NCBI GenBank assembly: GCA_000934665.2
Contig: JYFJ02002037.1
Location: forward strand, 44,691-64,690
DNA: 20,000 bases
Direction: 5' to 3'
Source of the DNA: Catajapyx aquilonaris
Lineage: Eukaryota
Notes under the pieces: generated by a model
Told to the model about the DNA's origin: nothing
Databases searched by the model: none
Seen by the model: the letters and a program-made list of their open reading frames with translations, nothing else
Part shown: one piece after another, positions 1 to 20,000 of the stretch
How positions within the stretch are numbered: position 1 is the stretch's first letter
How the letters are laid out: every line of letters starts with the position of its first letter
Made by a program: the position numbers and the translations under genes

Positions 1-1135
1 CTCATTAACTCATGCTTCTTGCACACTTGAATGCATCAAGAATTGTACAATTTCAATCCATGTACCGTTAACCTGCTATAAAACATACAATGTAAGCAAC
101 ATCCCAACTTATTTCTATACCTGAATTGTAATGAAACAACTGCCCTAATATGCAGGGTGTTCCAATTGAAATCCCTTAGAGTGTGGAGTTTTTTAAACGC
201 TAAGTTGCTTATTTTCAAGTGATTACTTTGGAAGTTGCTTAACTGAAAACATATCTGAGGCCAGGTTTCACAGCCTCAGGGAGGGTTTTCTGTTCCAGAA
301 AGAGAGAGAAAATGGCCCGAAAAATGTGCTGCACATTTGCATCTCCCTCTAGTACTTCTTTCTATACTCGAAAAGAGTTTCTCCTAAGAAAGCATACATT
401 ACAAGAGCAAGGTATAGACCAGAGAGTATAGGTCTATACCTGGTGAAGCCACCTAAAAGGAAATGGCTATCTCTTGGCCGCTCCCCTCTAACTGGCTTCA
501 TAATTCACAATTTTCAGCCTCCAGGACCACATATGCCCTTCCCCTATGCTCTGATCTGGAGAGTGATGACCCTCAATGCCCAAAAGTGGGCTTTCACAAT
601 GTATTTCACCCTTTTAATACACGGATGTGTTTCGACAACCATGCCTGCACACATGCCAATCTTATGGCGAGTGGACATTGATGTTGAAAGTATAACACAT
701 GTCCTCCTCCCTCCCTGGAAATTGCTGAATTTGTGACAGCACATTTAACTTTTGACCAATCATTACCAGTTATTCGTATTTCTCGCATACGCCCTCTAAG
801 ACAATCCTTACTATCTGTTGTTAGTAGATAAGATTTTTGACAACCAAAGTAACTTCTTAAAACCAAGCAGCTTAGTGCCAAAAAATTGCTAAAATTGCTG
901 AATTAACAAATTGAGGGCATGATTATGATCACGTATAAAAACCGCCAAACCAACTATTTACCACTCAAACATTGCAGGTGCATCCCCTCCAAATATTTCA
1001 CTGCTGTTTTGAGCAACACTGTAGCCATATGTACTATTTCAAAATGAATAATGCAGAGGCCAGCCATTGATAAAATATTGTGCTGCCCCAACCCAGTATT
1101 TTAAAAATTTATCGATCCGGATCCTCAAAAGTTGC

Positions 1136-1136
<1 letters not shown>

Positions 1137-1207
<71 letters not shown>
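1137..1207. repeat. (TA)n microsatellite
   Basis: About 35 perfect TA units. Confidence 0.99.
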
Positions 1208-1210
<3 letters not shown>

Positions 1211-1655
1211 TCCTCCCAAGTGGAAACAGCCAATGTGTCCAATTGATTCAAACCCAATGGTGAATCAACCACCAATCTTTTACTCCCATTTAAAAAAAAA
1301 AAAAAAAAACTCAAGCCACAAAAATTTCTCCACAACCATCCTATCCTCCCATCCTGCCCAATGTCCCAACCCGAAAAGTTCCCCCCTCCAGCCAATGAAG
1401 TGCAGGACAAGTGTTGGGAACCCAGGCAAGCCATGCAACCTGTTCTCGTTTTTCTAGTTTCGCGAGATAAAATTATCCGTTTCGGGGCTTCGGACGTGGG
1501 ACAAGTGAGATGCAAAACCCGCCTCAACTCAACCACATTCCTGCCCCAACTTTCCCCCCTCCCTCCTTCCTTATATCTGGCCACTCTTGAAAAGACGGCA
1601 GGAGAGAAGGAGAAAAAAAGAAGACGGTGGGGGTAAGGAGAAGGGTGGAGGGGGT

Positions 1656-1683
1656 GAGAGAGAAAGAGAGAGAGAGAGAGAGA
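1656..1683. repeat. (GA)n microsatellite, imperfect
   Basis: GAGAGAGAAAGAGAGAGAG... run. Confidence 0.9.
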
Positions 1684-2504
1684 AAAAAAAAATTCCAACC
1701 TCGCAGAAATTTCACCCGGAGTGTACCTCAACAAAGAAGTGGCAGTATGAGGTCACCAGGAAGAAAAGAAAACGGAAGGAGTAGCCAAAAAAATAAATAA
1801 ACAACAACAACAATCTGTGCCTGAAGGATGACTGTTGACAAAATTCCATCGTGCAGATTTGGCACACAAAAGCCGGGCGATTGTACTATGACCTAATAAA
1901 AATGCCTCTGCAAATGAGTCATAAAGTCACTTTCACTGGCTGCATACTTTTTCCCGGCTGTCAATCCCTTTTCCACACTGCAGAGTACAATGGTCGTTTA
2001 GAAATGACTGTTTCGGTGCTTACAGGCACTATGGGAGGAGGAGGAGGGGGAACAGAGTAGCAAGTATGTGTGTACTTGCACTGAGGCTAGAAAATCCGGC
2101 TAGATATTTAAAATGTCAATCATGAGGCACCATATTGCATGGATGGCACATTCCAGTTGACAAATTTATTGCTTGACTGTCATGACCCACCTCTGAAAAT
2201 ATTGTAGTTGTGAATTTCTAGTGTAAAGATGATAGGAGGAGGGTATGCATTGTTTTACACTGAAGATCGATGGCTGCCAATGCAAAGCTAAAATAACTTT
2301 CATTCCACACTGCATGTCGTACTACAAATGAATCATAGTACCATACCATTTTCATTGTTACACAGTTGTAATTATTTGACCTGCTTTTTATTAAACCAAC
2401 CAACTGCAACCTGAACCAAAAAAAAATAATCCCTCAGGATGAATAAATGCTCCTAAATTTTATTCATCCAAATATACCATAATTTTTGTGCACATAATAC
2501 TTAC

Positions 2505-2613
2505 AACTGGTTCTTGAGTTATTGAGGTTGGTGAGTGCATTGTGAAGGTGCTGGTACTCATCCTCAGCGAAGTACAACCTCTGCTCCTTCACATCTAGGA
2601 TCTCCCGTTTAGC
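2505..2613 (-). CDS. kibra: Kibra/WWC family protein, coding exon 4 (coiled coil); gene continues beyond window start
   Basis: Acceptor ttcattgcag|GCT and donor T|GTAAGT; 109 nt, phase 0 start matches exon 3. Encodes AKREILDVKEQRLYFAEDEYQHLHNALTNLNNSRTS, like Kibra AxKEIYxVKQQRLxLAQxEYxxL. Not in the supplied ORF track. Confidence 0.93.
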
Positions 2614-4311
2614 CTGCAATGAACGAGATACAAATCATTCAGTGCAATTATTCATTTCCAGTGAGAGAGATAAGGGAAGACGAAAAAACTAGTATAACTA
2701 CCAGATCCCACAATCCAAGTGTAACGTGAAGGCATACCTAAAACTCTACCTCTCCCCACTCCCCCACCTCCAAATGAGCTTTCTCCACAACATTCCTGAA
2801 ATTCATTCTCATTACTCGCCCTGTTTATCAACCAAATATTTCTCCTATATATATATATATTTTTTTTTACAAAAAAAAAAAGATACAGCAATTGCGTCAC
2901 GCCTTTGTTCGCCAAAAATGCTGTTCCATCCCGGACCTTCCTTAACCAACCTTTTCTTCTTCCTTCTCAGAGAATACCCTCCAGTGGTAATAAATGTAGG
3001 GTCCTAGTGGGAAGTTTCCCCACAAAGGATGTTCCCTGGAACATTGTACCACAGTGTCGGAATAATGCGATTATAATGAACTGGCTTGTGCGTGTCGCAA
3101 TTAGGACTACGATGGAACGAATTAAAATGTTGGGAAACGTCACGTGTGCTAGCAGTGAATCAAACGGCTTTTAAATGCTGGGTGGTCCAAATCTCCTTTA
3201 ATCTCCATGTAACATTAATCAGCCCCTATCAATCAAGTAGCACTAGATCATCCTATCATGAATTGCGACTTTACAATTATACGAATGGTGACACCGACTT
3301 TCGAACGTGACACGAGAAGCCTAGGGAATCCCACTAATAATTACATACTATGTTTAGTTATTATTCCGTGTATTAAACCGTGCCAAATATTATTTAAAAC
3401 CCACTTAACACTCCGATCTAGATAATGTAATTACCACCACAATCCAATTACACATTCTCACATTCTTCTGCGCTCTTTTTTTATTTTATTTTTTTAAAAA
3501 GCTAATATAAAAAAAAACTCCCTCGGGAGGTAAAAATTAATAACGTCCTTCTCCCCTTGACATAGCAGGTTTTGAAAGGAAGAGGATGTCCTCTCTTGGA
3601 GCCTACCTGGCGGATCCTAGGTATTGGGGAGCGGGTGGAAGTGGAGGGGAGGGGGAGGGGGCGCATTCCACCACAATCCCCCACCACCCCTACTTTTATC
3701 TCCACCCACTGAACCACCCACCTAACTGGGTGCCTAAAGAACAAAAATGCGTTGGCCACGGGATCAACCTATCTCTTTCGAGACATATACACTCTTGCGT
3801 ATGTGCATTTATTATTAATATTATTGTTATTATTGAAAATGTACACCGCGCCACTATACCGGAATTTAATCACGAGATCTTGCAAATTCGGCGGAAAATA
3901 TTTTAAAACCTTATCGAATGAAAGCTTTTTACTACTATTACGTATTATAATCTTGATACACATTATATCAGTAGGCCTGAATTAAACAGGACCGGAAATT
4001 GTAAATGTAAAAATTACTGCCGTGAATAGTGACGTACTTATCATTAGGGGCTTCGGGTGGAAGATTTGGTCAAATTACAGCTTAAATATGTATCACATGT
4101 GCGTAAAGCGTGGGAAAGTAGGTCATAACTCAAATTATGCAGACCTTTCCTGAATAGTACCCTCACGGACTGAGGTACGAAGAAACCTGTATTCCTTCTG
4201 TTAAAATAGATGGAATCACCTCAATATTGCAACATTATTCCTGTTTAGAAATAGCATTGCTTGCACTATCAACATAATTTTAATATTAAAAGTTTCCTTG
4301 CTTTGAAACCG

Positions 4312-4326
4312 CATTCCTTACATTCC
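4312..4326 (+). promoter_or_regulatory. Tandem TEAD/Scalloped double site in intron 3
   Basis: CATTCC-tta-CATTCC: two direct M-CAT cores with the 3-nt spacing known for cooperative TEAD binding. Confidence 0.55.
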
Positions 4327-5312
4327 TCATTAATGTCATCATTGTTTCCCCACATAGTAATACATACCACACCTCCTCATTATTCACGTCACCTCATTTA
4401 AGCCAAACTAGCTTCACTAGATATTACTCCACAATTGAAAACAATACCGCCATTGCTAGCCTGCAATTATGCAATGGCCCAACATGCCAAATCTTAACCT
4501 TAGCATCACGGCTCAAGTCGTGCTATTTTCAAGCATTGTTTCCTCTCCATAACAATGCGGCCAATAATTTGAGAACATCATGCACTTCGTTTGTATATAC
4601 GTAAACATGAGAGTGGGAAGATTACGATATTCCCATCCGATGACACATAGGTGAATCCACAAGCCCGATTTTTATCAAAAGCACAAATAGACTGAGCCGC
4701 TATATTTCGGAAACATTCACATGCCAGAAGGCTATGACAACCGTAGTTCATGCGCAATAATCCTGATCTGGTGCAATGTCTACAGATTTTTATCCGACTG
4801 ATTTCTGCTCGATATGACGTTCGTGCTGTGTAAACGCAGCATATGTGCAAGACATTCAAGAGATGGCCTCCCCATCTCTGAAGCACACAAATGGTTTGAA
4901 GAAGAAGAAAGAAAAAAAAAAATTGAGAAGCAGCAAGTCAATCATGATCCGCCTCGGGTCAGGCAGATATGGGCGCAGCGTTGCCAAACCTTTCCTCCCA
5001 TCCCCCAACAACAACAAAATGCTCCCAGACACACTACCACACTTTTGGACACATTTCCACAATCTCCCATACTCCATTCCGAAAAAAAAAAGCAGTCGCT
5101 AAACAACCCCCCGCGTCATCCGCGTCCTCAATGTCCTCAGCATCTGAAGGCTAGGCAACCATGACCCAATTGACCATCTTTTTTTTTTTCTTCTCCCCCC
5201 ACTCTTTTTTTGTGTGTGTATGCAGGGTGTCCCTGCGTAGTTCGGTAGCAGCAGGTGGATCATCCCACCTTTTAAAATACAAGGTTGTCAAATGGGGCGG
5301 TGCTGGACTTAC

Positions 5313-5407
5313 CTCGATTTCCTCCTTGGCCGTGTGCACGTAGTCGCGCAGCATGGCCTCCTGGATGTCCCTCCACTCCAGCCTAGGATCCTCCAGCTGA
5401 GTTGTCT
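5313..5407 (-). CDS. kibra: Kibra/WWC family protein, coding exon 3 (end of atypical WW2, start of helical region)
   Basis: Acceptor tttttaacag|AG after a 95-nt intron and donor GAG|GTAAGT; 95 nt. Encodes (Q)TTQLEDPRLEWRDIQEAMLRDYVHTAKEEIE, like Kibra TTQIEDPRxxWRxxQExMLKDYL. Confidence 0.95.
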
Positions 5408-5502
5408 CTGTTAAAAATTTTAAAAAATTTTAAAAAATCAAATTAGCTTCATAAATATTTTAATATATGAAATAATTACACCGCAAAAATGACAATACTT
5501 AC

Positions 5503-5612
5503 GTTTAATATGATTGATGAAATACACGCCGATATGCGGATCGTAGGCCTGTTCCCAGCCCCAAGGAAGCTCGTTCCCGATACAATCCGCGAAACTCTGC
5601 GGCTTGGTGAGT
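5503..5612 (-). CDS. kibra: Kibra/WWC family protein, coding exon 2 (WW domain 2)
   Basis: Acceptor ttgtgtctag|A and donor C|GTAAGT; 110 nt, phase-compatible with exon 1. Encodes [36 protein letters not shown], the diagnostic Kibra TKPxxFADCIxxELPxGWE motif. Confidence 0.96.
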
Positions 5613-5886
5613 CTAGACACAAAAAGAATGCAAGGAATTAGTCACAATCGCCATTCAGCAGAATGTTGCGTCAATGAATACGGCAGACAATGTATCGTGT
5701 GCGACCCCCATGCCGTTTAGTCAGCCGCTCCCCCCAAAAAGAATGCGATTAAAGCGGACCTGTTTATAAATAACCGGGACATTGTATTTACGCGCCGTAA
5801 CATTCCCAAGGAGTACTCAGCGATCTTCGTTGTGACCCCCTATCCTTGGCTCCCCCCCCCCCCCAACCCTCTAAGAATATTTATAC

Positions 5887-5890
<4 letters not shown>

Positions 5891-5958
<68 letters not shown>
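5891..5958. repeat. (GA)n microsatellite
   Basis: 34 perfect GA units in intron 1. Confidence 0.99.
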
Positions 5959-5960
<2 letters not shown>

Positions 5961-7157
5961 CGGGCTCGCGAGACGAGATTCTGGCAACATTCAAACATAC
6001 ATCCGGCAACCCTGGAATTCCAGGGAGGACCCCTCCCCTGTTCCCCTTGTTCACAAACGGGAGATAGTTGGGGATGGCGGCGGGAGGAGAGGGGAGGGCA
6101 AGGGGGTGGGAAAGAAGGGAATGTGTAGGTATCCCCCACTCATTTCCTTGCTTCAAAAAACTTTGATTTTTTTTTTTGTACTAGTCCGTCAGCCCTTGCA
6201 CAATCCGGCACCCGCGCATTTTAATACGTGACCTTATTAAGAGAGAATTTGTAGTACACGTGACACTGTTGATCATCATTAACGTACCTAGAATAATCAA
6301 ATCACGGACCGCCAAATAAAATCCAAAAAAAAAATACGATCCTAAAAAAAATTAAATTTAGTGTCCCACTACTGGCGTTACGGCATCAAAAATAAAACGG
6401 TTGACATTATGAGAGCTTGGCATGTGATAAACTCCTGGAGTTCCTTTCAGATAACACGGGCATCTTATCTACCACGGAATCCCAAGGTCTACGCCTGAAA
6501 CATCTCTAAATGCCACACATTTTCGGCCGTTTTATCTCCAAGGTGACGACACAGGTCACTGACATACCAACAGAATACGAACTTAGGCGGCCGGCGTTCA
6601 AAAAAAAAAAAAAAAACGTATTAAAAAAAAAAAACGGGCCCGGTTTCAGTTATGCCCGGAATCCATCTTGGTCCGACCCAGACATACTTTGTGCAAACCA
6701 CCATTGGCTAATATGTACTCCGCAAGTTATTTACACGCACAAACTAAGTGGGAGGAGCTGCCCGTTTCCAAAAGAAGATTTTCTGGACCGGGCTCAAAAA
6801 TGGGCCGCCATTTCTCACGTGCCTCGAATTCCGCTCATTCTCACTGCCGAATCGCACCANTCCAATCCCATTTTCAGATTTTGACCCCCTCGAAAAAAAA
6901 AAAAAAAAAAACATTATTGGCACGAGAAAAAGCTGTTGCCACGCGTTATGCAAGACGCCGCAGTGAAAATATTTTGCACCGCGTTTTTCGCGCGCAAACG
7001 ACTTTTTCGCACTTAATGTATGTATTGGCAAGGATTTTCAAAATATCATTTTTTTTTAATGACCTGCAACCCGGGGAAGGGTACTTGGCATCATCTTTCA
7101 AAGCATTCCTGTTACGTAGCCCCTGTGTGAACTTACGCACCAAGTGCAAGTACGCAG

Positions 7158-7263
7158 CCAGAAGTACAATGTCTGTTTTTTTTTTTAACTTGCAGATTCG
7201 TTGCTTTACCAGAAGTACAAGGTGTTTCAAAAAAAAACTTGCAGATTCGCATATTGCTTTACC
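7158..7263 (+). repeat. 51-bp-period tandem duplication
   Basis: CCAGAAGTACAA...AACTTGCAGATTCG...TTGCTTTACC occurs at 7158 and 7209. Confidence 0.85.
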
Positions 7264-8348
7264 CCCTACCTGAAATGGGAAAATGGCGCCCAGAATGAAT
7301 GTACTCGGAAGGCGTCCATCAACATGCGAGCTTTACTTTTTTTTTTTTTACCTCTCTCTCCCTTGCTTGTACCTGGCAGCATTTGATCAGTTCCCCAGAG
7401 AACTGGCTGCGAATCCCACGCATGGTGTTTTAACAACCCCCTTTGGAATATTAAAGCTGCCTCGCTATGGGAAATCCCCGGTTAACTATTTTTTTTAACA
7501 GCCTTTAATCACTGCAATGAAGCCGCTTGTGTATAAACATGATTATCGAGTGCCCTTTTTTTTAACGAAAAAATCCTAGAAAGCTTGAGAAAATGTATTG
7601 GAAACGCGATTTCACAATGAACCCTTTGCAACCTGGTTGCACCGGCAACCCACCAAAAAATTGAAGTTATGGAATGCGGGCAACATGTGAATGAAGAGAA
7701 ATAGCCCAGGGTTAGAAATAAAACGCATACCAATGCGTGTCATTCCCCGACTTCTTTTATTGGCGCAAAAATGTATCCTCAACCCCCCCTCTATATGTCC
7801 AAGAAAGGCGAGAACACCCCTAACCCCCTTAAAAAAAACAAGAAAAAAAAACGCATTCCTGGCCGCCAGATGGGAACCAAGGTCCTGGGTTCGACCTCCC
7901 CCGCCCCGACCCTCCACCCCCTTTTCCGCTGCCCCAGGCCATATTTCAAAGCATGCCGAAGATCTTCACGGGCACAAAAAAAAACAAAAAAAAACGCAGA
8001 CCTTATCAATTGTCATTCCACCCATATTTGAAAATATGCACTTTTCACTCTACTTAAAAAATGGTTACGCAAACCATGCGCGATTCAACAAAACTACAGT
8101 AAACGGCTCTCTCACGGGGTCTGAAAAACCAGGCTGGGGGTCACTGACCCTCTTTTTTTTTAATGCGAAGATATTTTTCCTTTCCTTTTAATCTCAGCGG
8201 GTGGAAAAAACTGAAAAAAAAATTTGTAAAAAAGTGCAGGCTGGAATGGAGGAAGTGGTCCAGAGACTGAGGAGCCTAAAAATACGGCCCAGAATCCGAG
8301 AGACAGTCTGGCGTCTTTTCTGCTCACATACTCAAACGTTTTGCAAGA

Positions 8349-8374
8349 TGTGTGTGTGTGTGTGTGTGTGTGTG
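8349..8374. repeat. (TG)n microsatellite
   Basis: 13 TG units. Confidence 0.97.
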
Positions 8375-11228
8375 GAGGGTGAGCAAGGTCACAATTAGAA
8401 CCTTTAAAAAAAAAAAGTCAGGATCGTAAACGCATTTTGGCATATCGTAAAAACCGGCACGAATTATGTCATAAGTCTCATAACATCCCCCCAGTCCTTG
8501 TTACGCCAAAATTTTTGCCAATTGCAGAATGGAATTTTTTCGATGTCAAGATTTTTGAACCCCACCCACCCCCACCCACAGGAAGCTTGTACCCGCATCA
8601 ACCCCCAAGACGCTCAAAATTTTGGAAGCTTTCCAGACACTTCCGTTCGTTACCCTCCTCTTTTATTCCTGCTGCTATTTTTCCATCTCCGCCTTACGCA
8701 AATGCTCATCATGGCAATGATATTGCTCACACCAGACCTTGCAATAACATACCCTCATACAGGAAAATGTACCCTATAAACAGTACCTGCTAATTGTTGA
8801 ATTTAAAATTGGGCAAATTTATTTAAAAAAAACACACACCGGTCCAATTATTATATTCCAAACAAATGGCGACAGTCCCGTGCAATACAATGGGCTTAAA
8901 TAAACCTGAATCAGTCTAACTCAATATGTCAGTTGTAAATTAATTAAGCCACTTACATCTCCTTATGTAATCAAGCTGACAATGCAGACAGTTTGAATAT
9001 AAAAAAGAGCGCAATAAATGCTGATTATGCAACCGTGGCCACAAAGTGGCTCAACAAAACTCATGGCCAACAAATTGGCAGTCAGATTGTCAGCGGGGGT
9101 TGGTTGGGTAGGGGGGGTGTAGGGGGTGGGTCGGTGGGTGTTTGCTACCTTGAACTGACCCGAGGAGGTCGTAGGGAAGTTTGTGAATCTATAAGCCGAG
9201 GAATTGGGGGAGGGGGGGGGGGGTGAGCCAAGGGGAAGGGGACACCTCACATCTGTCCATGACTTCCTTTTTCTTCAAAAGGAGAAAACCTTCAACTTCC
9301 CCGCATTCCTAAACCAATTCCTGTGACCTCCACGAGGAATTTTTAACATTTTTAGAGGCCGTTTCCTTGCAGTTTTTCCCAGCCCACTTTCGCCTTGGGA
9401 ATTCGCAATAATTTCTCCTAAACGCATTTCAGCTTGGAACATCGATATATATATATATATTTTTTTAAAGTAATGCCCGTACCCTACTAGTGTACACAAA
9501 AAATAGGGTGGACGAATAGTTCATACCGCATATTTCAATTTCAGCGTGGCACATGTGCATGACGCCATGAGCAATCATCCGTTAACCAGAAAATGCCATT
9601 CAGATATCATCAGATATGTGGTAACTCAGATAATGTCGATGGGATTACAAGTAGTAATGAATCAAGTGTCTATATTTGTTCCGATTTATATGTAACCACT
9701 AAAAACCCCCACACACAAAACTGAAATTAGGGAAGTGAAATTCAAGCCCATGAGCGGCCTTGCCAAGGTGTGCTGTGCAACGGAATATATGGGCACCATT
9801 TTTTTTAAATTGCTTTTCATGTCAAGTTCCAACAATGCGGCCAGCGATTACTGACCAAATTAATGTCACGAGAAATCCGATTAGGCTCCAGAATTACGAG
9901 GTGGAGTTTTTAATATGTCTTATTCAATCACCTGTTATCAGGTATCGCAATGAGTGTGTGGCATGCGCCCAACCCGTATTGTTTGGACGAGGTGGGTGTC
10001 AAGTGACATGAAAAGTAGCTATTCAGACGTGCCGCACATTGTTACGGAACAATGTGTATGCTCTAGGAAAAAAAATTATCGTCGCCCTACACATCAGCTC
10101 GTAAATCACATGTACGCACTCGTCAAACGAGCCTAATCGCCACATTGGTAGTACTACGTCAATGACAAACTAGATATTTCATTGCCCATTCAAAGTACTG
10201 GGAAGAAGAAGAAAAATGTCTGAACAGCTCGAATGACTTTTCGTCAATTCGCTCCTGGTATGGATGGAATGGTACTCAGGAAATACCCATCGTGTTACAA
10301 ACACGCCTGAAATTTTACACGTTCCTGTCTGCGTAGTATTGCAGATATTAACACGAACTAGGCTTAATCACACCTTGTACGACCATGTGTGCTGCAATAT
10401 ATCTGAATGTATCATGTAATTACTAGGATATATGGCCTGCCTTCCTAACCTTAATCCTAGCCTGTAATTGCACTGGACAAGCAATGCTAAGGTCGCGAAT
10501 CTTTTCAAGTGATTTTAATGCATTTTAATGACAGTAATTATTATCCCTGTATTTACCTCAATTTCATGTTATTTCCCGCATCCAAATTGCAAGGCACGTG
10601 ATTGTACCGTAAAAAGAAATGCTTTCCTTGTATGTTATCTCAGAATTCCAGGTACACCAGTGAAACTGTCAATTAATTTAGGTATGGCTTCAAAGAACAG
10701 GGTTTTTTTTTTTGGGGGGGGGGGGGGTTTCAACCCATTTTGGTTTGGCGCCGGGCTGATTTTTAAAAAACCAAAACACATTCTTATATCCTTAACTCTT
10801 GCATATAAAAAAAAAACTGCGACTGACCAACTGGTTCTCTCCCGCTTCCTTCGACCCATGCCGCATTCTTCTCCCCAGGTGTCAGCACCCACACCTCCCA
10901 CCCCCTACATTAATGTCACGTTTTTCCTGCCTCCCAAAATCAGAGCCTACGAGAAATTCTTGCACCCTCTTCATTCGACATGTGCGTTGACACACAGTGA
11001 TGCCACTGACCACATAGTAAATCTAGAACATGTGCATCTGACAAATATTTAGGGGTCTGGCATTCCCCCCACATACGACTGTCACATTACTCGTTCCCCC
11101 CCTCATTTCTCGCGGCACGAGGAATTCCATGATCCTATCGCTGACGTCGATCCATGTGGCCCATCCCTCCCTTGGTAAGAATGTCACCTGTCCTCCCATG
11201 GAATGTGTCCTCAAAAATCAGCATGTAC

Positions 11229-11413
11229 CTGTCTCTTGGGTCGATCCATGTGGTCTGTCTCTTGTTGTGGTCGATGAAGTACAGCTTCCCGTCATAATCC
11301 TGTCCGACATCCCAACCGGCCGGAAGCGGGATGGACCCCCCAATCCCTGGTCCCATCCCGTCTCCATTGCACCTACTGCTCCTGCTGTTGCCGCTGCTGT
11401 TGCTCCGGGGCAT
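11229..11413 (-). CDS. kibra: Kibra/WWC family protein, first coding exon (start codon + WW domain 1)
   Basis: ATG at 11413 (context ACG-ATG) reads MPRSNSSGNSRSSRCNGDGMGPGIGGSIPLPAGWDVGQDYDGKLYFIDHNKRQTTWIDPRD-R, matching the Kibra/WWC1 N-terminal pattern PLPxGW...DxDGKxYxIDH...TxWIDPRDR. Ends at AG|GTACAT donor (phase 2); 185 nt. Confidence 0.95.
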
Positions 11414-11850
11414 CGTCCGAATAACCCGCGCGCGGACAAGACACCCATGCACTTCACCTACGCTGAACCACTTTGTAGGCGCGGGCTTATGCTACTGGCC
11501 CCCGCGGTCTGCCTCACCACCACTCCGATCACACAGACACCCCGCGCGGGACCACCGATTCACGCACACATCGCACCCACACCACAGCCTCCCAACTACG
11601 GGTCCGCTCTGGGGGCCATCTTGAGAAAAAATGGCCATTCGCTGCCTGCCAGACTGCACTAGGGGGAATTCAAGGGAGGGGAGGGGGGGAGGTTTGAATC
11701 CTCCAGGGGTGGGGGGGAGGATGGGAATGTGATAGCGTAGCGGTTATTTTTAGGTAGCTGTTGGAAGTAGCGGCTACTAGAGGGAGTCGACAGTACATTC
11801 CGGGGAAGCCTTTCATTTTATCAGTGCATTCCGAGTGGGAAATGCTTTCT
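11414..11850 (-). promoter_or_regulatory. Putative 5' UTR and TATA-less core promoter of kibra
   Basis: GC/CpG-rich stretch directly upstream of the start codon; Inr-like GCAGTC (minus, 11657-11652); YY1/Pho-like GCCATCTT near 11615; TEAD hexamers at 11724, 11796, 11827. TSS position is inferred only. Confidence 0.5.
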
Positions 11851-12037
11851 TGGAGGTATGCAGCCAGCTCTGATGGATAAAGGACCGAGCCGTGGACCGA
11901 GCTAAAAAAAATAATTAAAAGAATAAATACACTCATAAGCAGGCGCGAAATCAAAAATGGGCCAGCAGATTAGTTTTATTATGATTTTTTGAGGGTCTAT
12001 CCCACGTCACGGCACGTCATTCTGGCGTCAACCTCAT

Positions 12038-12144
12038 GCATACTGCCAAACCCCAAGTGGTCCCCGCAACCGGCGGATACAGCCCTATCTTCAGCGGATA
12101 CACATGAGCCGGTTGCGGGGACCACTTGGGGTTTGCCTATATGC
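12038..12144. mobile_element. Tiny foldback element / possible Mutator-like MITE
   Basis: Perfect 28-bp inverted repeat 12047-12074 / 12108-12135, extendable to 37 bp with 3 mismatches; flanked by imperfect 9-bp direct repeats CAACCTCAT / CAACCCTAT. Confidence 0.6.
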
Positions 12145-12170
12145 CAACCCTATTTCCTCCAGCCTAACGT

Positions 12171-12512
12171 CAGGGAGCATATACTACATAAGAGGCGCAA
12201 ACTTCTGTAGGCGCCTTTGATGTTCGCGTCTCTCTGTTTATGGCGTTGCCAAGGCTGGCGGCCATTTTGAAGTGTGTGGAACGCCAACGAGGCATAAATA
12301 GGGTCCGCCATCTTTGATGGTTTTGGCGGCCATGGCAACTACACGGCAATAACACGCGCTAATCAAAGATGGCGGACCCTATTTTTGCCTGTACCCTATT
12401 TATACCTCGTTGGCGTTCCACACACTTCAAAATGGCCGCCAGCCTGGGCAACGCCATAAACAGAGAGACGCGGAAATCGAATGTTGGCGCCTCTTTATAT
12501 GTATGCTCCCTG
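12171..12512. mobile_element. Foldback MITE (CAGGG-ended; P- or hAT-like)
   Basis: Arms of about 150 bp (CAGGGAGCATA...CCGCCATCTTTGAT / ATCAAAGATGGCGG...TATGCTCCCTG) are near-perfect inverted copies with small indels; flanks CTAACGT / GTAACGT resemble a 7-bp TSD with one mismatch. Confidence 0.8.
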
Positions 12513-13074
12513 GTAACGTACTGTACATTACAGACGACCCTCATAAAATTATTTTTCTCCATTCCACAGTTTGTTATTCGAGCATCCATCCTCAAAAATT
12601 CGAGGCTGGACCAAGAATCTGAAGAATCGGAAACATCCTTAGGAGTAGTAAACACGAGTAAACAACCTAGCTATATCAGAAGATGAGGAATTCAAAAAGA
12701 CGTAGGTACACAGGGGACGGACATTCCGCAATACAGTACGAGATTCACCCAAAATTCCTTATGATGAAAAGAAACAACGCAAAACATGAATGACGTCCAC
12801 ATATTTTATTCCATACCGTAGAATGCAGATTCAGATAATAAAATCACTTTTATTACATCTTTGTACCTCATATCTCCTGAAAGAAATGGCTATAAAAATT
12901 CCGGCGCCCTTTAAGACGGCCCACGAGGCATTGCGTTGATAACCACCATTTTCCGTCGACTTTTATGCATTAATATCCAGGTGAAAACATAATACCGGCG
13001 ATCAGTTTAGCCGCTACTTTGGAACAGTTATGAGTTTCTCCACTAGCAGGAGGGGGGGATGGAGGAAGGGAGAG

Positions 13075-13160
13075 GAGAATGTGACGTCACAGACCAAGTT
13101 CCCCTTCTGGGCCAATCCACGCCCCGGATTCCTGTGCGAAGGAATGCGGCTCATTTGCAT
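13075..13160. promoter_or_regulatory. Candidate enhancer/promoter motif cluster
   Basis: GTGACGTCAC (palindromic CRE, 13081-13090), GGCCAATC (CCAAT box, 13110), CCACGCCCC (Sp/KLF, ~13117), GGAATG (TEAD, 13141) and ATTTGCAT (octamer, 13153-13160) within about 80 bp. Confidence 0.5.
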
Positions 13161-13486
13161 CGACACCCAACCACCCCCTCACACCCCAGCCCCCGTCCTA
13201 CCTACCCTCCGGCCATATTATCCAAGCATATTTCCCTTATCCCGTCTCCCCCCACCCTGTCTCCCAACCCCGACTCGTCCTACCAGCCTCAAGCGCTCTA
13301 CGCAACTGAGTTACGCACGCGAGTGACGTTAGAGCGCCAACTACGAATGAGGCGCGCCGCTCTTTCTTGGAACTCGCTGTGTTGCTGGCGGGCCAATCTT
13401 GGAGGTATTTTATGATGATTAAAAATGCACATGTGCTGATTTTCTATTAATTTCATGGTTAAATCGTAAACAGACTGGAGGATTGG

Positions 13487-13810
13487 GGGTGGCCGGCGCT
13501 GGTGGTCTGGTGGGGTTAGCGCGCTAGCCTCTAGACCCGTGGGTTCGAACCCGGCCGAGGTCGGTGACTTTTCTCCGGGTGGTAGAAAAGTGAGAGTGCG
13601 CCTTCCTTCGGAGGGGAAGTAAAGCCGTCTCGGTCCCGTGTGCTTGTGACATTACGCGAGTGCACGTTAAAGATCCCCAGAGTGGCCAAATTTCCAGGAG
13701 AAGGAGCGCCCCCTGGCGTCGGTGTTTAGCCTCAGCAGCAGAAATAGGCCCCACCAGGAGTGGCCCCACTGATAAGGTGGAGGATTGGTCTCTCTCAGCC
13801 AAAGTAATAT
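13487..13810 (+). mobile_element. tRNA-derived SINE with Nin/Deu-like core
   Basis: A box TGGTCTGGTGG (13503-13513), B box GGTTCGAACCC (13542-13552). Body CCTTCGGAGGGGAAGTAAAGCCGTC...GTGCACGTTAAAGATCCCCAG resembles, from memory, arthropod SINE cores. 3' end uncertain; TGGAGGATTGG at 13476 and 13778 may be the TSD. Confidence 0.8.
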
Positions 13811-14150
13811 ATATGGGAGGGGGGGATCTGGTTCAGTAATGGATTTTTATTATTTTAGGGGCGGTAGCCCCTAAGTAAGGCCGTACAACAATTTTCAACA
13901 ATTAATTTTTTCAACATCTTCTTGTTGTTGTTGTTACGCTTTTTTTATTCGCCCAAACTCAAGTTCTGCTGTTGGTAGAGCTTCCACATTTTGAACACAG
14001 ATCCCCACCGTCGCACAGTGGGGTATTTGGGCCGAAAAGTTGGTCGAAATTTTTTCTGTCGGCTTTTGCTTCTAAAATGCTCTGATTCATTAATTTATGA
14101 AGTAATAGGGGAAGTAAAGTAGTTTTTGGTGAGAAAAAGGCTGGCAGTAT

Positions 14151-14346
14151 AAGTGGACCTTTACTGGCACAAGCAATATGTACGAATTACTCCATTTCGT
14201 AAGAAACGATTGCGGATTTCTCATGAATCGTAGCCAATTTTGGGTTTTTATTGTCATATTCGTGATCAGAACCTTCAAATCATTAAGAAATGACTACTTA
14301 AGTCGGCAACGCCGGCAATAGAAGCGGACCTTTACTACTGGTAACT

Positions 14347-14417
<71 letters not shown>

Positions 14418-14530
14418 CTAGTCAGTTATGTAAAAAAAACTATTACGGATTCCTCAGGATTCGTAGCCAATTTTGGATTTTCATTGTCATATTCGTGATC
14501 AGCACATTGAAATCTTGAATAAATGTCTAC
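14151..14530 (+). repeat. Diverged internal tandem duplication inside the Transib-like element
   Basis: AAGYGGACCTTT at 14151 and 14322; TCGTAGCCAATTTTGG...ATTGTCATATTCGTGATCAG at about 14228 and 14461; second copy interrupted by (AT)n. Confidence 0.75.
14349..14415. repeat. (AT)n microsatellite
   Basis: About 33 AT units inside the Transib-like element. Confidence 0.99.
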
Positions 14531-15572
14531 TTTAATCTTGAAGTTTGACTTGTTGTATCAAGTCATATAATTGTCTCCATACCATGACTTTGACTCCTGA
14601 TGACCCTAGTTGAAAGAGAGAGAAAAAAATAGTCGGAAAAAAGAGATGCAAAAATTTACGTTAACAGCACAGGAGAAAAATGAGGGGGGAAATGAAAAGG
14701 CGCGAAATGGCGCGTCAGATTCTTTCCTAGCTATAAAATAGAAAGCTGACTCTTCAAAATGTCATAAATAAGACAGATGGATCAGAGTGGGAACCATAAC
14801 TTAATCATGTTTGAATATTTCACATTTGGCGAAAAAATTATTGCATAATTTCGAGGACTAATAATTACTTATAGCCTAGTCATATTATTGTAAGAAATTC
14901 TTTAAAATGAAGTACACACCTTCTTCTGAAGCTTCCATATTGGAACAGTTCACATATATTTTGTATAACTGAAAACAACACTAATGAATGTGTCGCGCCG
15001 TAAATTGCGCTTGAAATTAGCTAAATAATACGCGAACTGTCTTCAACTTTCAACTGCTGGTACAGACGAAGGGTTACACCTATGAGAAGTACAACTGTAT
15101 GTCATAATAGACTCGTCATTCATCTGATCCAGGAAACAAATTTTATTGGAATCCGTAACATTCAAAAAAATCAAATTTTGTCCAGCTTTTGAGGCCAAAT
15201 ACTACACTGTGCGTCATGAAGTGCATTCCTACCATTTGCAGCTAAACTCAATTCCTCTTCAAAATGCCGCAAAAATTTTAAAATCACTAAAATATACGGT
15301 TCTATTTTTTTGCTCAATAACTATTCGGAATTTGGTTTCTTCATCAAAGGGCCGAATGAGCAGTAGGATGGTGCAGATCTATGTTCAAAACCTCACAGTT
15401 CCACCTCCTGCAGGATTGAAGTTATGCTTTTTTTCACAAAAATTTTTCCATCAAATACTTCATTTGTTCATGATTCCATCACCTAGCAATGTCAATTCTT
15501 ATTTACACCTCGCCATATTGTTAGAGCGAAATGTTACCCCACTGCTTTGGAGTGAACGGATTGTACTCATTA

Positions 15573-16302
15573 CAGTTGAATCCGGATATAACAGCCTCGG
15601 CTATAACTACAGACTTTTGGTTATAAAGGCCGGTCCCGACATGCTTCGTCCATAAGGCCCCGTGTATTTTACTCCCAATTAACGGACTCATTTTCACCTC
15701 ACCTCGGGTAGAGCACACCATTTCTTGGCCCTCGGTGGGAAAATATAGTTTTCCAGATACAAAATTTGCACAAAGGAGACGGCAGAAGAAAATTACGGAT
15801 ATTTTGGTCCTTTATCATTTTCGGGTGAGCTAATGTTATTAAATTTTTGACAGATTTCATTAATCGGTATGTAGTCTAGTAGTGCATATTGCAGCCATAT
15901 TACCGAAGCAGGTTGGTGTAGGGGATAAGGAGCCGGCCTGCTAATCGGGAGGTCCTGGGTTCGAGTCCCGGGCCCGGAAACCCTGACCATGGTTTTCTGT
16001 GGTTTTCCATGGTCCCCCCAGGACAATTCCGGGGTCGTTTCCATAAAAATAGGCCACAGCCTCTTCCTTCCTTCCCTATCCCTGGTCCCATCCAATGGTG
16101 GTAATCCACGCCCCTAAGGGAGCCAAAGGCTCTAGCACGGGGTATGATAAATAAAATAAATTAATTAATAAATAAAATATTGCAGCCATATTGAAAGCAG
16201 AAATCTCTGTTTTCATTGTGTGGCGAATTGGCTATAACAGACCTCGGTTATAACAAACTTTTTCCGCAGTCTCTTGAAGTTTGTTTTATCTGGATTCAAG
16301 TG
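15573..16302. mobile_element. Tc1/mariner (pogo/Tigger-like) MITE containing a nested SINE
   Basis: TA|CAGTTGAATCCGGATATAACA ... TGTTTTATCTGGATTCAAGTG|TA: imperfect TIR with TA TSD and repeated subterminal TATAAC motifs at both ends. Confidence 0.8.
15902..16176 (+). mobile_element. Full-length tRNA-derived SINE, recent insertion
   Basis: A box TGGTGTAGGGG (15914-15924), B box GGTTCGAGTCC (15958-15968), A/T-rich (ATAA)n tail, perfect 16-bp TSD ATATTGCAGCCATATT (15886-15901 and 16177-16192). Body GGTTTTCTGTGGTTTTCC...AGGCCACAGCCTCTTCCTTCC recalls insect Lm1/Talua-type SINEs. Confidence 0.92.
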
Positions 16303-16311
16303 TACCATTAA

Positions 16312-16906
16312 CCCCTTCGCTACCGGCTATATCGCCATTGCCATTGCCATCACCAGGTATTACCAGCCAACTCTTAAGCTGATTTAATTATTAAATTATG
16401 CTACAGTATATGCTGAATATCTACCTTGAGAAACGTGCCAGACGAATTTGCTGAAATCGTCGCATTTCGCGAAAATTAAGTAAGGTTGGGAGTTTTCAGA
16501 TGTGACGGAGGCAAGTCGCAGATAAGTATTGATTGAATTCTTGCAAAGTACCACGATTTCATCAAATTCGTCTGGTACAGTTCTCAATGTACATATTCCG
16601 TATATTTTAGAGTATAGGCTATTTCATGATAATTAAATCACACTAACCGTTGGCTGGTAGCATTCGACTTTCGTTTTTTTTACGACTATCTCTGTGAAAG
16701 TCATTTAGGGACTTCTAAGCGACAAAATCATCTCCAATACATTCATAGTGCAGACTGTATAGTGTAGAGCATAAACGTGTTAGTATGATATGATCCTGCA
16801 TGTATCACTGTAGCTGTTATTATTTGTAAAATATCTTGTCCTTGTCTTCAGAGTACGTGTAAGCGACAACCTAGACGATTGCAGTATATCTGGTATTGCG
16901 AAGGGG
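16312..16906. mobile_element. piggyBac-like MITE
   Basis: TTAA|CCCCTTCGCTACCGGCTATA ... TATATCTGGTATTGCGAAGGGG|TTTAA: CCC-starting imperfect TIRs at TTAA-like sites. Confidence 0.7.
16363..16657. mobile_element. Foldback MITE nested in the piggyBac-like element
   Basis: TA|CCAGCCAAC ... GTTGGCTGG|TA, with matching inverted blocks along the arms (TGATTTAATTAT/ATAATTAAATCA; CCAGACGAATTTGCTGAAATCGT/ACGATTTCATCAAATTCGTCTGG). Confidence 0.7.
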
Positions 16907-16927
16907 TTTAAAAAAAGAACTGAAATA

Positions 16928-17700
16928 AGAGCAAAAACATTCCCTTGAGTGAAAAAAGGGTAATAAGACCTCCGTGGCGGAATGAAAGTACTGAAACAAG
17001 GCAGGCGCACGTAAGACCTTCACCAATTGATTTAAGCTGTACCATAGGTCTTACTCAAGCAATTCTAAAGTACTGTATGGAAGGGCTCGTAAAAATTACT
17101 GCTGCAAACTACTCAGAGCAGTATGTAGGGTTTTATTTTGAAAAGAAAAAAAATGGGAAAAAAACTAAACCCATCCTAACAGACTTGGCTCAATCGAAAA
17201 GACCCTCTCAAATTCGCCAATTAGCGTTTATATGTGAAAAGTTAAACATTAGAGTTAAAATCAGCATCTAAAAGGGGTGACGATTCTTCATTATGAATGT
17301 TTCATGGCAATAATTTGCACCAATCGTATAGAAATTCAATGTGCTTAATATTGAAGTTCCTAATTTCAGAAAACACTTATATGGAGTGGCTCATGGAAAA
17401 TTAATGGGTGGAATTTTCGTTGTAGTACTAGTAACTATAGTTACTGGTAATTTAGCAGTACCATTGCACTACACTGGTACTGCTAAGTTAGAAGTAACTA
17501 GTAGTACGACGAAAATTCCACAAATTGTTTTCGGTAAGGAGACTTCATGAGCAGTAAATTGGAAATTGCTTGAGTAAGACCTATGGTACAGCTTAAATCA
17601 ATTGGTGAAGGTCTTACGTGCGCCTGCCTTGTTTCAGTACTTTCATTCAGCCACGGAGGTCTTACTACCCTTTTTTCACTCAAGGGAATGTTTTTGCTCT
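16928..17700. mobile_element. Non-autonomous DNA transposon with ~140-bp near-identical TIRs
   Basis: 16924-17064 is the reverse complement of 17564-17704 with 2 substitutions seen (mirrored in the duplicated ORF text SEKRV[I/V]RPPW[R/L]NESTETRQAHVRPSPIDLSCTIGLTQAI); TA on both flanks. Confidence 0.85.
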
Positions 17701-18119
17701 TATTATATTTCCTTTTCATCAGATGACATACTCCACTAATCCTTCTAGACCCCACTGCCGAAGGGTCATCTTCTTCTTCAACCTCCTCAGACATGGCCAC
17801 CACCATCTCTTCCTCCTCCTCCTCCTCCTCCTCCGCTTCCGCCTTCTTGATCTCACCAAGTGTGTCTTGTATGAGAGTAGAGTCATCATCAAAGCAAGAA
17901 GGGGTCTCCTCCTTCAAGAGAATCTGCCAGGTCTGCTCTGTTGTGATCTCACCATCTTCTTCATTCACTTCCTCCTCCTGTATCTTCAGGATCAAAGACA
18001 TGGTCCTGCAAACACAAGAGTGGAAGTCATGTAATCATGTCAAGTAACACACAAGTCATGGCAGATGAAGAGGAGGAATATTTCTCTTAGATTATCACAT
18101 CACCACTGTAAGTTTTTAA

Positions 18120-18320
18120 GGGTGGCACAGCTGTGCAGCAGTCAGCACCACATAATTTGAGGTCCTGTGTTTAATGCCCGTACTGGACATGGGAATTTCG
18201 CAAGTGGAAAATGCTTCAATTGGATCTCTGCCTCTTCCCATGACGGCTCTCAGGATTCTTCCGTTTCCTTCCAACTGTCAATTTTCATCACAGTGCAGTG
18301 CATGAAATGAGATGAAACGT
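18120..18320 (+). mobile_element. Possible decayed tRNA-derived SINE
   Basis: TGGCACAGCTG A-box-like and GAGGTCCTGTGTTTAATGCCC degenerate B-box-like motifs, followed by a CTCAGGATTCTTCCGTTTCCT segment; no TSD found. Confidence 0.3.
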
Positions 18321-18707
18321 CCATTTAACCCTCAGAGCCCGGCAAGTAAATGGCAGGTACTGCCGAGAAAGCTGGTAAGCATTTTTGTAATTTTTTAAAA
18401 TCTCAAGTCCTCATGACCTAAAAAAAAATGTTACAATAAAAGATTATATGGGATAATTATACATCAATGTTTACCTCAGACTTGGGGCTTAAAAACAAAT
18501 ACAAACAAAAAACGCAAATGTGTGGGTCATGTGACCATGGCGGCCATTTTGCATCTATAATCCGGAGTCAGGCATAGATGGAAAGCAATATTGAAACAGC
18601 GCCCATACTTCTCAAATTTAAAATGATCAAAACTCAGCCAACTTTTTCTGAGTGATAGTATAGGCTACCTCTAATTTACCAATTCAATCAATGAATATAA
18701 CATGATT

Positions 18708-19170
18708 CAGAGCTGCCAACCCTACCCCCCAAAAAATGAGGGGGAGGTAATGACATAATGAGGGGGATTGGGCATCTGAGAGGGGGATTTTGTGTCCCAT
18801 CGTTCGCTAAGACGCCATCTTGTTCAAGGTGCAACTCCTGTGGTAGGTAGTGGGTAGTCTGTCGTGATTGGCTGGATCTTTCTTCCGCAGACTTACCACT
18901 TGAGTACACCTTGACAAAGATGGCGGATAGCGAACGATGTAGCGCGGCCAGCGCCAAATTCCCAGCCTGGTGAAGACACAGAAATTAAACTACCGTAGCC
19001 ATACAACTAGGGGGAAGTGACATGGGGCTGAGTGAGGTAGTACTAGTACCAAATATAATAATTTAACGATAATCTCTACGGCGGGGGAAATAACCCTGCG
19101 TGAGGGGGGGCGGGGGAGAACACGTAAATGCGGGAGTCCCCCGCCCAATGCGGGAGGGTTGGCAGCTCTG
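18708..19170. mobile_element. hAT-like MITE with 6-bp TSD
   Basis: Perfect 16-bp TIR CAGAGCTGCCAACCCT / AGGGTTGGCAGCTCTG; direct repeat ATGATT at 18702-18707 and 19171-19176. Confidence 0.85.
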
Positions 19171-19572
19171 ATGATTAAAACATTTTTGCATACCGTAACC
19201 AACCTGACCCAACCAGTGCACCTGCACTGGTTTGAAAGCTGGGGATCAAGCATCTGCCTAGTGTGTGGGAAAGTGGGAAAGCCAGAGCCACGGCCAGAGC
19301 AGACATGCTGCCCTGATCTGTTGTTTCAAAAAAACAACCTTATCTTATTATTTTTATTATATTATTATTAATTATTACAATCACCCACCCTTCCTCTTCC
19401 TGGTCACCCTCTGCCTCCACACCAGCCGGGGCCTCCAGTCCACCCCTCTCGTGATGATGAGTGAGGAAGACTAGTTCCAATTAGAAGGAGAGATGAGACC
19501 TGGATGGATCCCAACTCCCAAGTCCCTTTTAAGGCCGATCAAACTCTTTCTTCTTTCCCTTTCCTGCTTTCC

Positions 19573-19975
19573 TGGGCTGTGTTTTTGACCCCTCTCCAGG
19601 AAGATGGAGAGGAGAGGTGGAAGAGGGCGGGGCTTCCGGAATATCCCCCACATCCCCCCTCTCCACTATTAAACCCAAAAACGGGCGGAATGGTGTAGCT
19701 AGGGGAGAAGGCCCTCAAAACAGTTGAGAAGAGCGCGAGGCGAGGGCCCTGGGCCCAAGGAGGTTTAATTCTGCAACCAAATCCTTGGGCTGTGTTTTTA
19801 CTCCCTCTCCAGGAAGATGGAGAGGGGGCGTGGTCTCTACCCTAGCGTTTTTGGTGCCTCTCCAGAAAGTTGGAGAGGGGGGAAATGGGGGGTGAAATGG
19901 GCGGAGCTCTCCACAAAATCCCAAAAAGTGTCTTCTCTCCTCGGAGGTGGAAGAGACTTTCTGGAGAGGGGGGTG
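19573..19975. repeat. Diverged direct repeats built on a CCTCTCCA-N6-TGGAGAGG palindrome
   Basis: TGGGCTGTGTTTTT...CCTCTCCAGGAAGATGGAGAGG at 19573 and 19786, a third palindrome at 19857-19878, and half-units near 19660, 19907 and 19962. Confidence 0.75.
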
Positions 19976-20000
19976 GAGCGGAGGGAGGGCGGGAAGCGGG

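Follow-up and report, generated by a model that had tools for sequence, protein, structure and literature searches.

An excess of TEAD/Scalloped words upstream of kibra and in its 5′ introns in Catajapyx aquilonaris

The kibra locus and its repeats

The sequence examined is a 20,000-nt window of the Catajapyx aquilonaris genome (GCA_000934665.2, contig JYFJ02002037.1, positions 44,691–64,690 of the forward strand); all coordinates below are window positions. Homology identifies the minus-strand gene it contains as an arthropod kibra orthologue. Coding exon 1 (11229–11413, ATG at 11413–11411) encodes the first WW domain (Pfam WW, E 5e-8) and was placed by tblastn with named kibra proteins. The same search together with a splice model placed exon 2 (5503–5612), which holds the second WW region, exon 3 (5313–5407) and exon 4 (2505–2613), all on the minus strand. 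The four exons join via GT-AG introns into an open 166-aa frame. The later exons, encoding the WWC1 helical hairpin and the C2 domain, lie on the same contig within 8.8 kb before the window, and with the N-terminal WW domains they complete the Kibra/WWC architecture. Among the best 120 protein relatives, the named ones are mostly arthropod kibra and the others are hypothetical or unnamed; the top relatives in this set are 46–49% identical, all with PF25802. The domains, the tblastn matches and the named relatives thus agree with the kibra assignment made in the preliminary description.

Contigs from the same sample show single-copy depth over 5960–11840 and 12680–13519. Upstream of the gene, a high-copy inverted-repeat (MITE-like) insertion occupies 12170–12500, with arms at 12216–12304 and 12393–12481 that are 94% complementary. 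Its contig depth is thousands of times that of its flanks, it contains no CATTCC, and it separates the proximal from the distal upstream sites described below. Four sequencing runs covering the stretch, at least three of them from the same sample, yielded no usable variation at the sites; one contig of run X5 spans only 11234–11387. None of the runs listed is recorded as RNA or chromatin.

An excess that follows TEAD specificity

We counted 26 exact CATTCC/GGAATG hexamers in 1–13200 and five in 13201–20000. The preliminary description had listed 25 in the first interval, every one at its exact coordinate, and overlooked a 26th at 12560; its figure of about five for the last 6.8 kb matches ours. 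Its expectation of roughly six, for a GC content of about 42%, also reproduces the mononucleotide value (6.1 at a GC content of 43.4%), but that null is too low. Across 32 background 10-kb stretches of this genome, all on contigs of at least 50 kb, the hexamer count has mean 7.0, variance 7.0 and maximum 13; at that rate, 13.2 kb should hold 9.3. The excess is 2.8-fold against this genome rate (26 versus 9.3, Poisson P 5e-6), smaller than the roughly fourfold excess implied earlier. The 20-kb window overall holds 31 sites versus 14.1 expected (P 7e-5), and kibra's best 10 kb holds 22, while the maximum among 60 other 10-kb stretches is 13.

The preliminary description had proposed comparisons with shuffled sequence and with the genomic background, and the excess persists in both. 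Di- and trinucleotide shuffles of 1–13200, whole or in 1.1-kb blocks, gave means of 9.6–10.6, and none of 400 reached 26 in any of the four settings. The 5′ stretches of 13 homeobox genes average 7.2 sites per 10 kb, which takes out a general property of developmental genes. Site count shows no link to CpG content (rho −0.05); together with the local shuffles and the anagram words below, this led us to reject a CpG or composition effect. A repeat origin was likewise rejected, on the single-copy depth and on the absence of any of the 26 sites from blastn-matching stretches among the loci compared.

The enrichment of CATTCC ranks first among 60 anagrams (2.79 versus a median of 1.05), and CATTCC is the strongest hexamer outside low-complexity words among 2080. 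A purine before the core matters: RCATTCC occurs 19 times versus 4.3 expected (4.4-fold), and YCATTCC is enriched 1.4-fold. The published form RMATTCCWD (PMC12008814) reaches 18 versus 4.8, and the TEAD flank and variant pattern comprising RMATTCCWD and RGAATG, the latter given in passages of PMC3764184, reaches 38 versus 13.5 in 2614–13413. Three of 18 single-base variants tested were elevated at P < 0.01, namely AATTCC, CATACC and CATTCT. These fit published TEAD sites of the RMATTCCWD, RGAATG and CATACC types, a CATACC site scoring 92–98% by TEAD2/3/4 matrices (PMC7600930).

Four TEAD-type heptamers are elevated on both strands (31 versus 8.2 and 21 versus 7.3). The exact cores divide into 19 on the plus strand and seven on the minus strand, and the minus-strand cores alone are not significant (7 versus about 4; 28–56 of 400 shuffles reach 7). 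Against the anagram words, this strand bias is not significant (236:167, P 0.16). Several RAATTCC matches are GGAATTCC palindromes and are thus counted twice. Of 15 further consensus words, among them those for STAT, Rel, ETS, Su(H) and AP-1, GAGAG alone is elevated, because of microsatellites. The excess thus follows TEAD specificity: a purine before the core, tolerated variants elevated and others not, and a double site.

Layout of the sites

The word-rich domain extends from 1535 to 13146 and contains the 26 CATTCC cores and 52 matches to the four heptamers, which have no match in 1–1500 or in 13201–15200. Intron 1 (5613–11228, 5.6 kb) holds 12 cores versus 4.0 expected, intron 3 (2614–5312, 2.7 kb) five versus 1.9, and the 5′ leader with the upstream region (11414–13200) six versus 1.3, at 11724, 11796, 11827, 12560, 12722 and 13141. 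The 3′ gene body shows no excess (8 versus 7.0), and the last 6.8 kb keeps to the genome rate (5 versus 4.8), four of its five sites lying in repeats. Only the sequence upstream of kibra and the gene's 5′ introns carry the excess. Allowing for boundaries chosen post hoc, 4 of 400,000 simulated 20-kb windows hold 26 sites within 11.6 kb; the gene-defined span 2614–13413 gives 23 versus 7.6 (P 5e-6).

Intron 3 contains a perfect TEAD double site at 4311–4326 on the plus strand, two tandem RCATTCC cores with a 3-bp spacer, the spacing also given in passages of PMC4546604. It is one of 34 matches to RCATTCCNNRCATTCC genome-wide, against 11 for the reversed control and about 15 expected from the single-site rate; its presence has P 0.034 given 26 single sites. 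The flanks of 20 of the other 33 perfect double sites (the first 20 in the list, one contig-edge site skipped) show no excess (68 versus 70), so a double site alone does not mark a dense domain, and we dropped it as a marker. Weaker tandem pairs with 9-bp spacing occur in intron 1 at 5625, 6109, 6827 and 10257, and this is the commonest pair spacing in the region, on small numbers (three pairs versus 0–1 at other spacings).

Two clusters had been proposed, at 7671–8243 and 11061–11827, and neither stands out: five sites in 575 bp have P 0.46 and five in 770 bp P 0.77. A scan test found no compact homotypic cluster of enhancer size (P 0.44–0.97 for exact cores, 0.11–0.64 for the four heptamers). 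The sites are spread evenly over 11.6 kb and do not form one packed module. Of the distributed multi-site enhancer proposed earlier, what survives is a multi-site excess over the upstream region and introns, without the two clusters; from its sequence, the region is a putative enhancer.

Probable Yorkie feedback, its alternatives and known systems

This genome encodes a Scalloped whose recognition helix is unchanged, helices 2–3 (GRNELI to QAKLK) sharing 43 of 44 residues with human TEAD4 in the DNA complex 5GZB, and it contains a yorkie-like WW exon, which we take to belong to yorkie. Stretches around nine Hippo-pathway or YAP-linked genes that we take, from their translations, to be Merlin, salvador, Pez, ajuba, angiomotin, zyxin, paxillin, yorkie and scalloped show no excess over the background rate, several of their 5′ regions being cut by contig ends or possibly missed. 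Across these stretches, the excess does not show up as a general property of Hippo-pathway genes. The partial expanded stretch (6.35 kb) has a weak excess (8 versus 4.5, P 0.09; RCATTCC 6 versus 2.0, P 0.018). The comparison covers these ten genes; of further candidate positive controls, bantam was located and AGC-kinase tails were listed.

The excess is real and probably functional, and it would add a further case of a loop that is already known. We consider it likely that selected Scalloped/TEAD sites serving Yorkie negative feedback lie upstream of kibra and in its 5′ introns. The selected sites would comprise the roughly 16–17 perfect cores above background, together with weaker variants and a single cooperative double site; chance would account for about nine of the 26, which are indistinguishable from the functional sites. 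When Hippo/Warts activity drops, Yorkie would enter the nucleus, Scalloped would bring it to the kibra sites and kibra transcription would rise; Kibra would then help to reactivate Hippo/Warts and close the loop. Scalloped binding and site function in Catajapyx aquilonaris are what we infer here, and the loop itself is carried over from fly and human papers.

An unlikely alternative is that Scalloped does bind, but mainly with another partner, for activation of the Vestigial type or repression of the Tgi/VGLL4 type, so that the sites would set tissue-specific expression and not Yorkie feedback. The TEAD word identifies the TEA domain and not its cofactor, and the other feedback candidates in this genome show no excess. 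Against this stand the reported induction of fly kibra by Yki and the overlap in fly discs, where 97% of Sd-bound genes are also Yki-bound according to passages of PMC4032125. Less likely still, the word is read by some other factor, either another DNA-binding protein or an RNA-binding protein acting on GGAAUG in pre-mRNA: 19 of the 26 sites read GGAAUG on the transcript strand, the exact core is significant in the plus orientation only, and several RAATTCC matches are double-counted palindromes. Opposed to this are the anagram-like strand ratio, the heptamer excess on both strands, the enrichment upstream of the ATG, the flat counts of the other consensus words apart from microsatellite-driven GAGAG, and the 3-bp spacer, which is a TEAD feature. 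Least probable of all, and by now largely refuted, is chance, local base composition or repeats acting on a motif chosen after the gene name was seen: the plus strand is C-rich, the boundaries are post hoc, some 0.14 windows in a genome would reach this level at random and the background came from long contigs, yet the local shuffles, the anagrams, the CpG correlation, the gene-defined span and the position of the sites outside repeats all speak against it.

Beyond selected sites for Yorkie feedback, it is conceivable, if doubtful, that in this deep-branching arthropod the main hard-wired sensor of Yorkie is kibra and not expanded. Some 50 Scalloped sites, strong and weak, seeded evenly over 12 kb might give a graded reading of nuclear Yorkie; such a layout differs from compact enhancers and may be the ancestral form of the feedback in arthropods. 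Should site turnover preserve this field in other arthropods, the density of TEAD words alone could point to Hippo feedback genes in genomes without functional data. The finding would matter more if the dense, even layout were conserved at arthropod kibra while other feedback genes vary. Knowledge of the pathway itself is unchanged; a signalling loop already described in fly and human becomes readable in the raw sequence of a distant arthropod, and the double site at 4311 and the six upstream sites are concrete candidates for testing.

We found no site map or motif-density study of kibra in the literature within reach of our search, which mostly excluded subscription papers. That Kibra is a Yorkie/YAP target through Scalloped/TEAD, as the preliminary description held, is published. 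In Drosophila, kibra mRNA rises 6.2-fold on yki expression (passages of PMC2845807), and ChIP peaks of Yki and Sd lie at the gene (part of the PMC4032125 supplement). The fly gene is the same one, and its locus is induced by Yki and bound by Yki and Sd; the passages concerned give no site map or count, whereas here the map comes from sequence alone. Human WWC1 is bound by YAP1/TEAD1 (passages of PMC4546604). With the YAP1/TEAD feedback targets WWC1/KIBRA, LATS2, AMOTL2 and PTPN14, as described in parts of PMC4546604 and PMC5029684, the Catajapyx locus shares CATTCC cores, a 3-bp-spacer double motif and, probably, the placing of an upstream Hippo component under effector control. The vertebrate sites were defined there by ChIP and reporter mutation; in the Catajapyx genome the excess lies at kibra only and not at Pez or angiomotin (partial). 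The Drosophila warts promoter has seven Sd sites in 12 kb that act together, and the bantam wing enhancer also has seven, strong loss requiring mutation of all of them (passages of PMC5029684 and PMC3764184). Catajapyx kibra resembles both in carrying several Sd-type sites and differs in having 26 exact cores spread evenly over 11.6 kb without a compact cluster, densities that are only roughly comparable since site definitions may differ.

The kibra gene and its surroundings

The window forms the final 20 kb of contig C938 in a genome of 285.6 Mb. On its minus strand, four coding exons (11413–11229, 5612–5503, 5407–5313 and 2613–2505) join across GT-AG introns into a 166-residue open frame, with a WW domain encoded within exon 1. 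Additional exons, up to 8.8 kb before the window, encode a WWC1 hairpin and a C2 domain. Five named kibra proteins from insects and springtails match along all exons in collinear order, and for one long exon the best matches are arthropod kibra, 46–49% identical. These domains, alignments and relatives identify the gene, by sequence, as arthropod kibra, bearing out the name given in a preliminary description. The N-terminus ahead of the WW domain (11333–11413) comprises about 27 Ser/Gly-rich residues, compared with 8–9 in the five named proteins. The same contig carries a PPP1R15-like gene (PF10488; minus strand, 3267–3521 of stretch L004) downstream of kibra.

Several repeats accompany the gene. 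A MITE-like inverted repeat of very high copy number with 89-nt arms (about 12170–12500) lies between upstream CATTCC sites and contributes none; a second, short one with 37-nt arms occupies 12038–12144, and both lie upstream of the kibra ATG, at a distance of 0.6–1.1 kb. Two further regions, 13521–13750 and 15899–16343, are dispersed repeats present in many copies across the genome, judged by blastn matches and depth; we take these to resemble tRNA-derived SINEs. Two segments of about 150 bp (about 16924–17080 and 17555–17705) form an inverted pair that gives the same reading on both strands, and these two copies account for two of the five CATTCC sites beyond 13200.

Size and layout of the CATTCC excess

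CATTCC, the TEAD/Scalloped word, occurs 26 times within 1–13200, counting both strands together. All 25 previously listed coordinates proved correct, and a site at 12560 had been overlooked. The earlier expectation of six was a mononucleotide estimate; the genome background gives 9.3 per 13.2 kb, and the excess is real and statistically strong (P = 5e-6), although smaller than claimed, at 2.8-fold. This background comprises 32 stretches of 10 kb, hand-picked blind from contigs of at least 50 kb (mean 7.0, variance 7.0, maximum 13 per 10 kb). Local di- and trinucleotide shuffles averaged about 10 sites, with none of 400 reaching 26. When a scan was simulated with free boundaries, 4 of 400,000 matched the observed density, or about 0.14 windows per genome. 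Thirteen was also the highest count in a set of 60 other complete 10-kb stretches (the 32 of the background, 13 homeobox 5′ regions, 15 same-contig and Hippo-related; four stretches shorter than 10 kb omitted), whereas the fixed halves of the kibra window hold 17 and 14, and its best 10 kb holds 22.

The 26 sites are spread evenly, and the two proposed clusters, at 7671–8243 and 11061–11827, are no denser than an even spread (P = 0.46 and 0.77). Observed against expected counts are 6 and 1.3 in the upstream region, 12 and 4.0 in intron 1, and 5 and 1.9 in intron 3. Intron 4 has a weak excess in its near part (3 against 1.8), and there the enrichment ends, with 8 against 7.0 in the 3′ gene body. 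The CpG observed/expected ratio falls from about 0.8 where sites are dense to 0.34 in the 3′ body, a contrast that would fit unmethylated regulatory DNA as opposed to a methylated gene body. The distal 6.8 kb carries CATTCC at the genome rate, with five sites beyond 13200, as had been estimated; about 48% of it matches repeats, which contain four of the five.

Fit to the TEAD motif

Within 1–13200, CATTCC ranks first among its 60 anagrams and eighth of 2080 hexamers, below only microsatellite, poly-A and C-run words. The excess sits in cores preceded by a purine (RCATTCC, 19 against 4.3) rather than a pyrimidine (YCATTCC, 7 against 5.0). Among 18 single-base variants, AATTCC (19 against 9.5), CATACC (12 against 4.5) and CATTCT (15 against 7.4) are raised at P < 0.01 and CATCCC at P = 0.04; the remaining 14 show no increase. 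Pooled TEAD-type words number 52 against 16, which is no independent test because three variants were grouped after the counts were seen. Published patterns provide one: RMATTCCWD, reported for TEAD (PMC12008814), occurs 18 times against 4.8, and RGAATG (PMC3764184) 38 times against 13.5 across the gene-defined span 2614–13413.

At 4311–4326, on the plus strand in intron 3, a tandem pair of RCATTCC cores is separated by a 3-bp spacer, an arrangement described as a cooperative double motif (PMC4546604). Finding one double among 26 single sites has a P of 0.034. Genome-wide there are 34 perfect doubles, and 11 of the reversed pattern; the 34, about twice the chance number, form a short list of candidate Scalloped targets. 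Flanking sequence was counted for 20 of the remaining 33, and CATTCC there is at background. Two doubles, at G000:C1667:3689 and G000:C1681:13434 (genome:contig:position), lie on contigs that also carry a LIM-domain match and a homeodomain match. Over the 44 residues of helices 2–3 and the following stretch, Scalloped of this genome differs from human TEAD4 at a single position (43 identical), so the same DNA word should be read in this animal.

Other genes and the feedback reading

Stretches of Merlin, salvador, Pez, ajuba, angiomotin, zyxin, paxillin, yorkie and scalloped carry CATTCC at background, several of their 5′ regions being cut by contig ends. Angiomotin and scalloped were identified via their Pfam families; the other names are our own recognition from translated exons. 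For expanded, the 6.35 kb covered ahead of its FERM exon shows a weak excess (CATTCC 8 against 4.5; RCATTCC 6 against 2.0). TEAD-type words are raised in a homeobox-gene 5′ stretch, L139 (G000:C495:47701–57700; RCATTCC 9 against 3.3), making that gene a possible Scalloped target. A bantam microRNA lies at G000:C1224:55184–55266, above the Rfam cut-off.

We consider it likely that the kibra sites are Scalloped sites under selection, and that nuclear Yorkie would act through them to raise kibra, whose product would in turn reactivate Hippo/Warts. That Scalloped works with another cofactor at these sites is unlikely; in the fly, kibra mRNA is reported to rise 6.2-fold upon yki expression, with negative feedback proposed (PMC2845807), and kibra is scored as both Yki-bound and Sd-bound in supplementary rows (PMC4032125). 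Use of the word by a different DNA- or RNA-binding factor appears less probable still, and chance or composition is the least probable account.

No kibra site map or site-density study appeared among the papers listed in literature searches. The feedback loop proposed in the preliminary description remains a sensible reading backed by a strong excess, albeit with a smaller effect and without clusters, and the kibra site excess is probably a new instance of this well-known loop.
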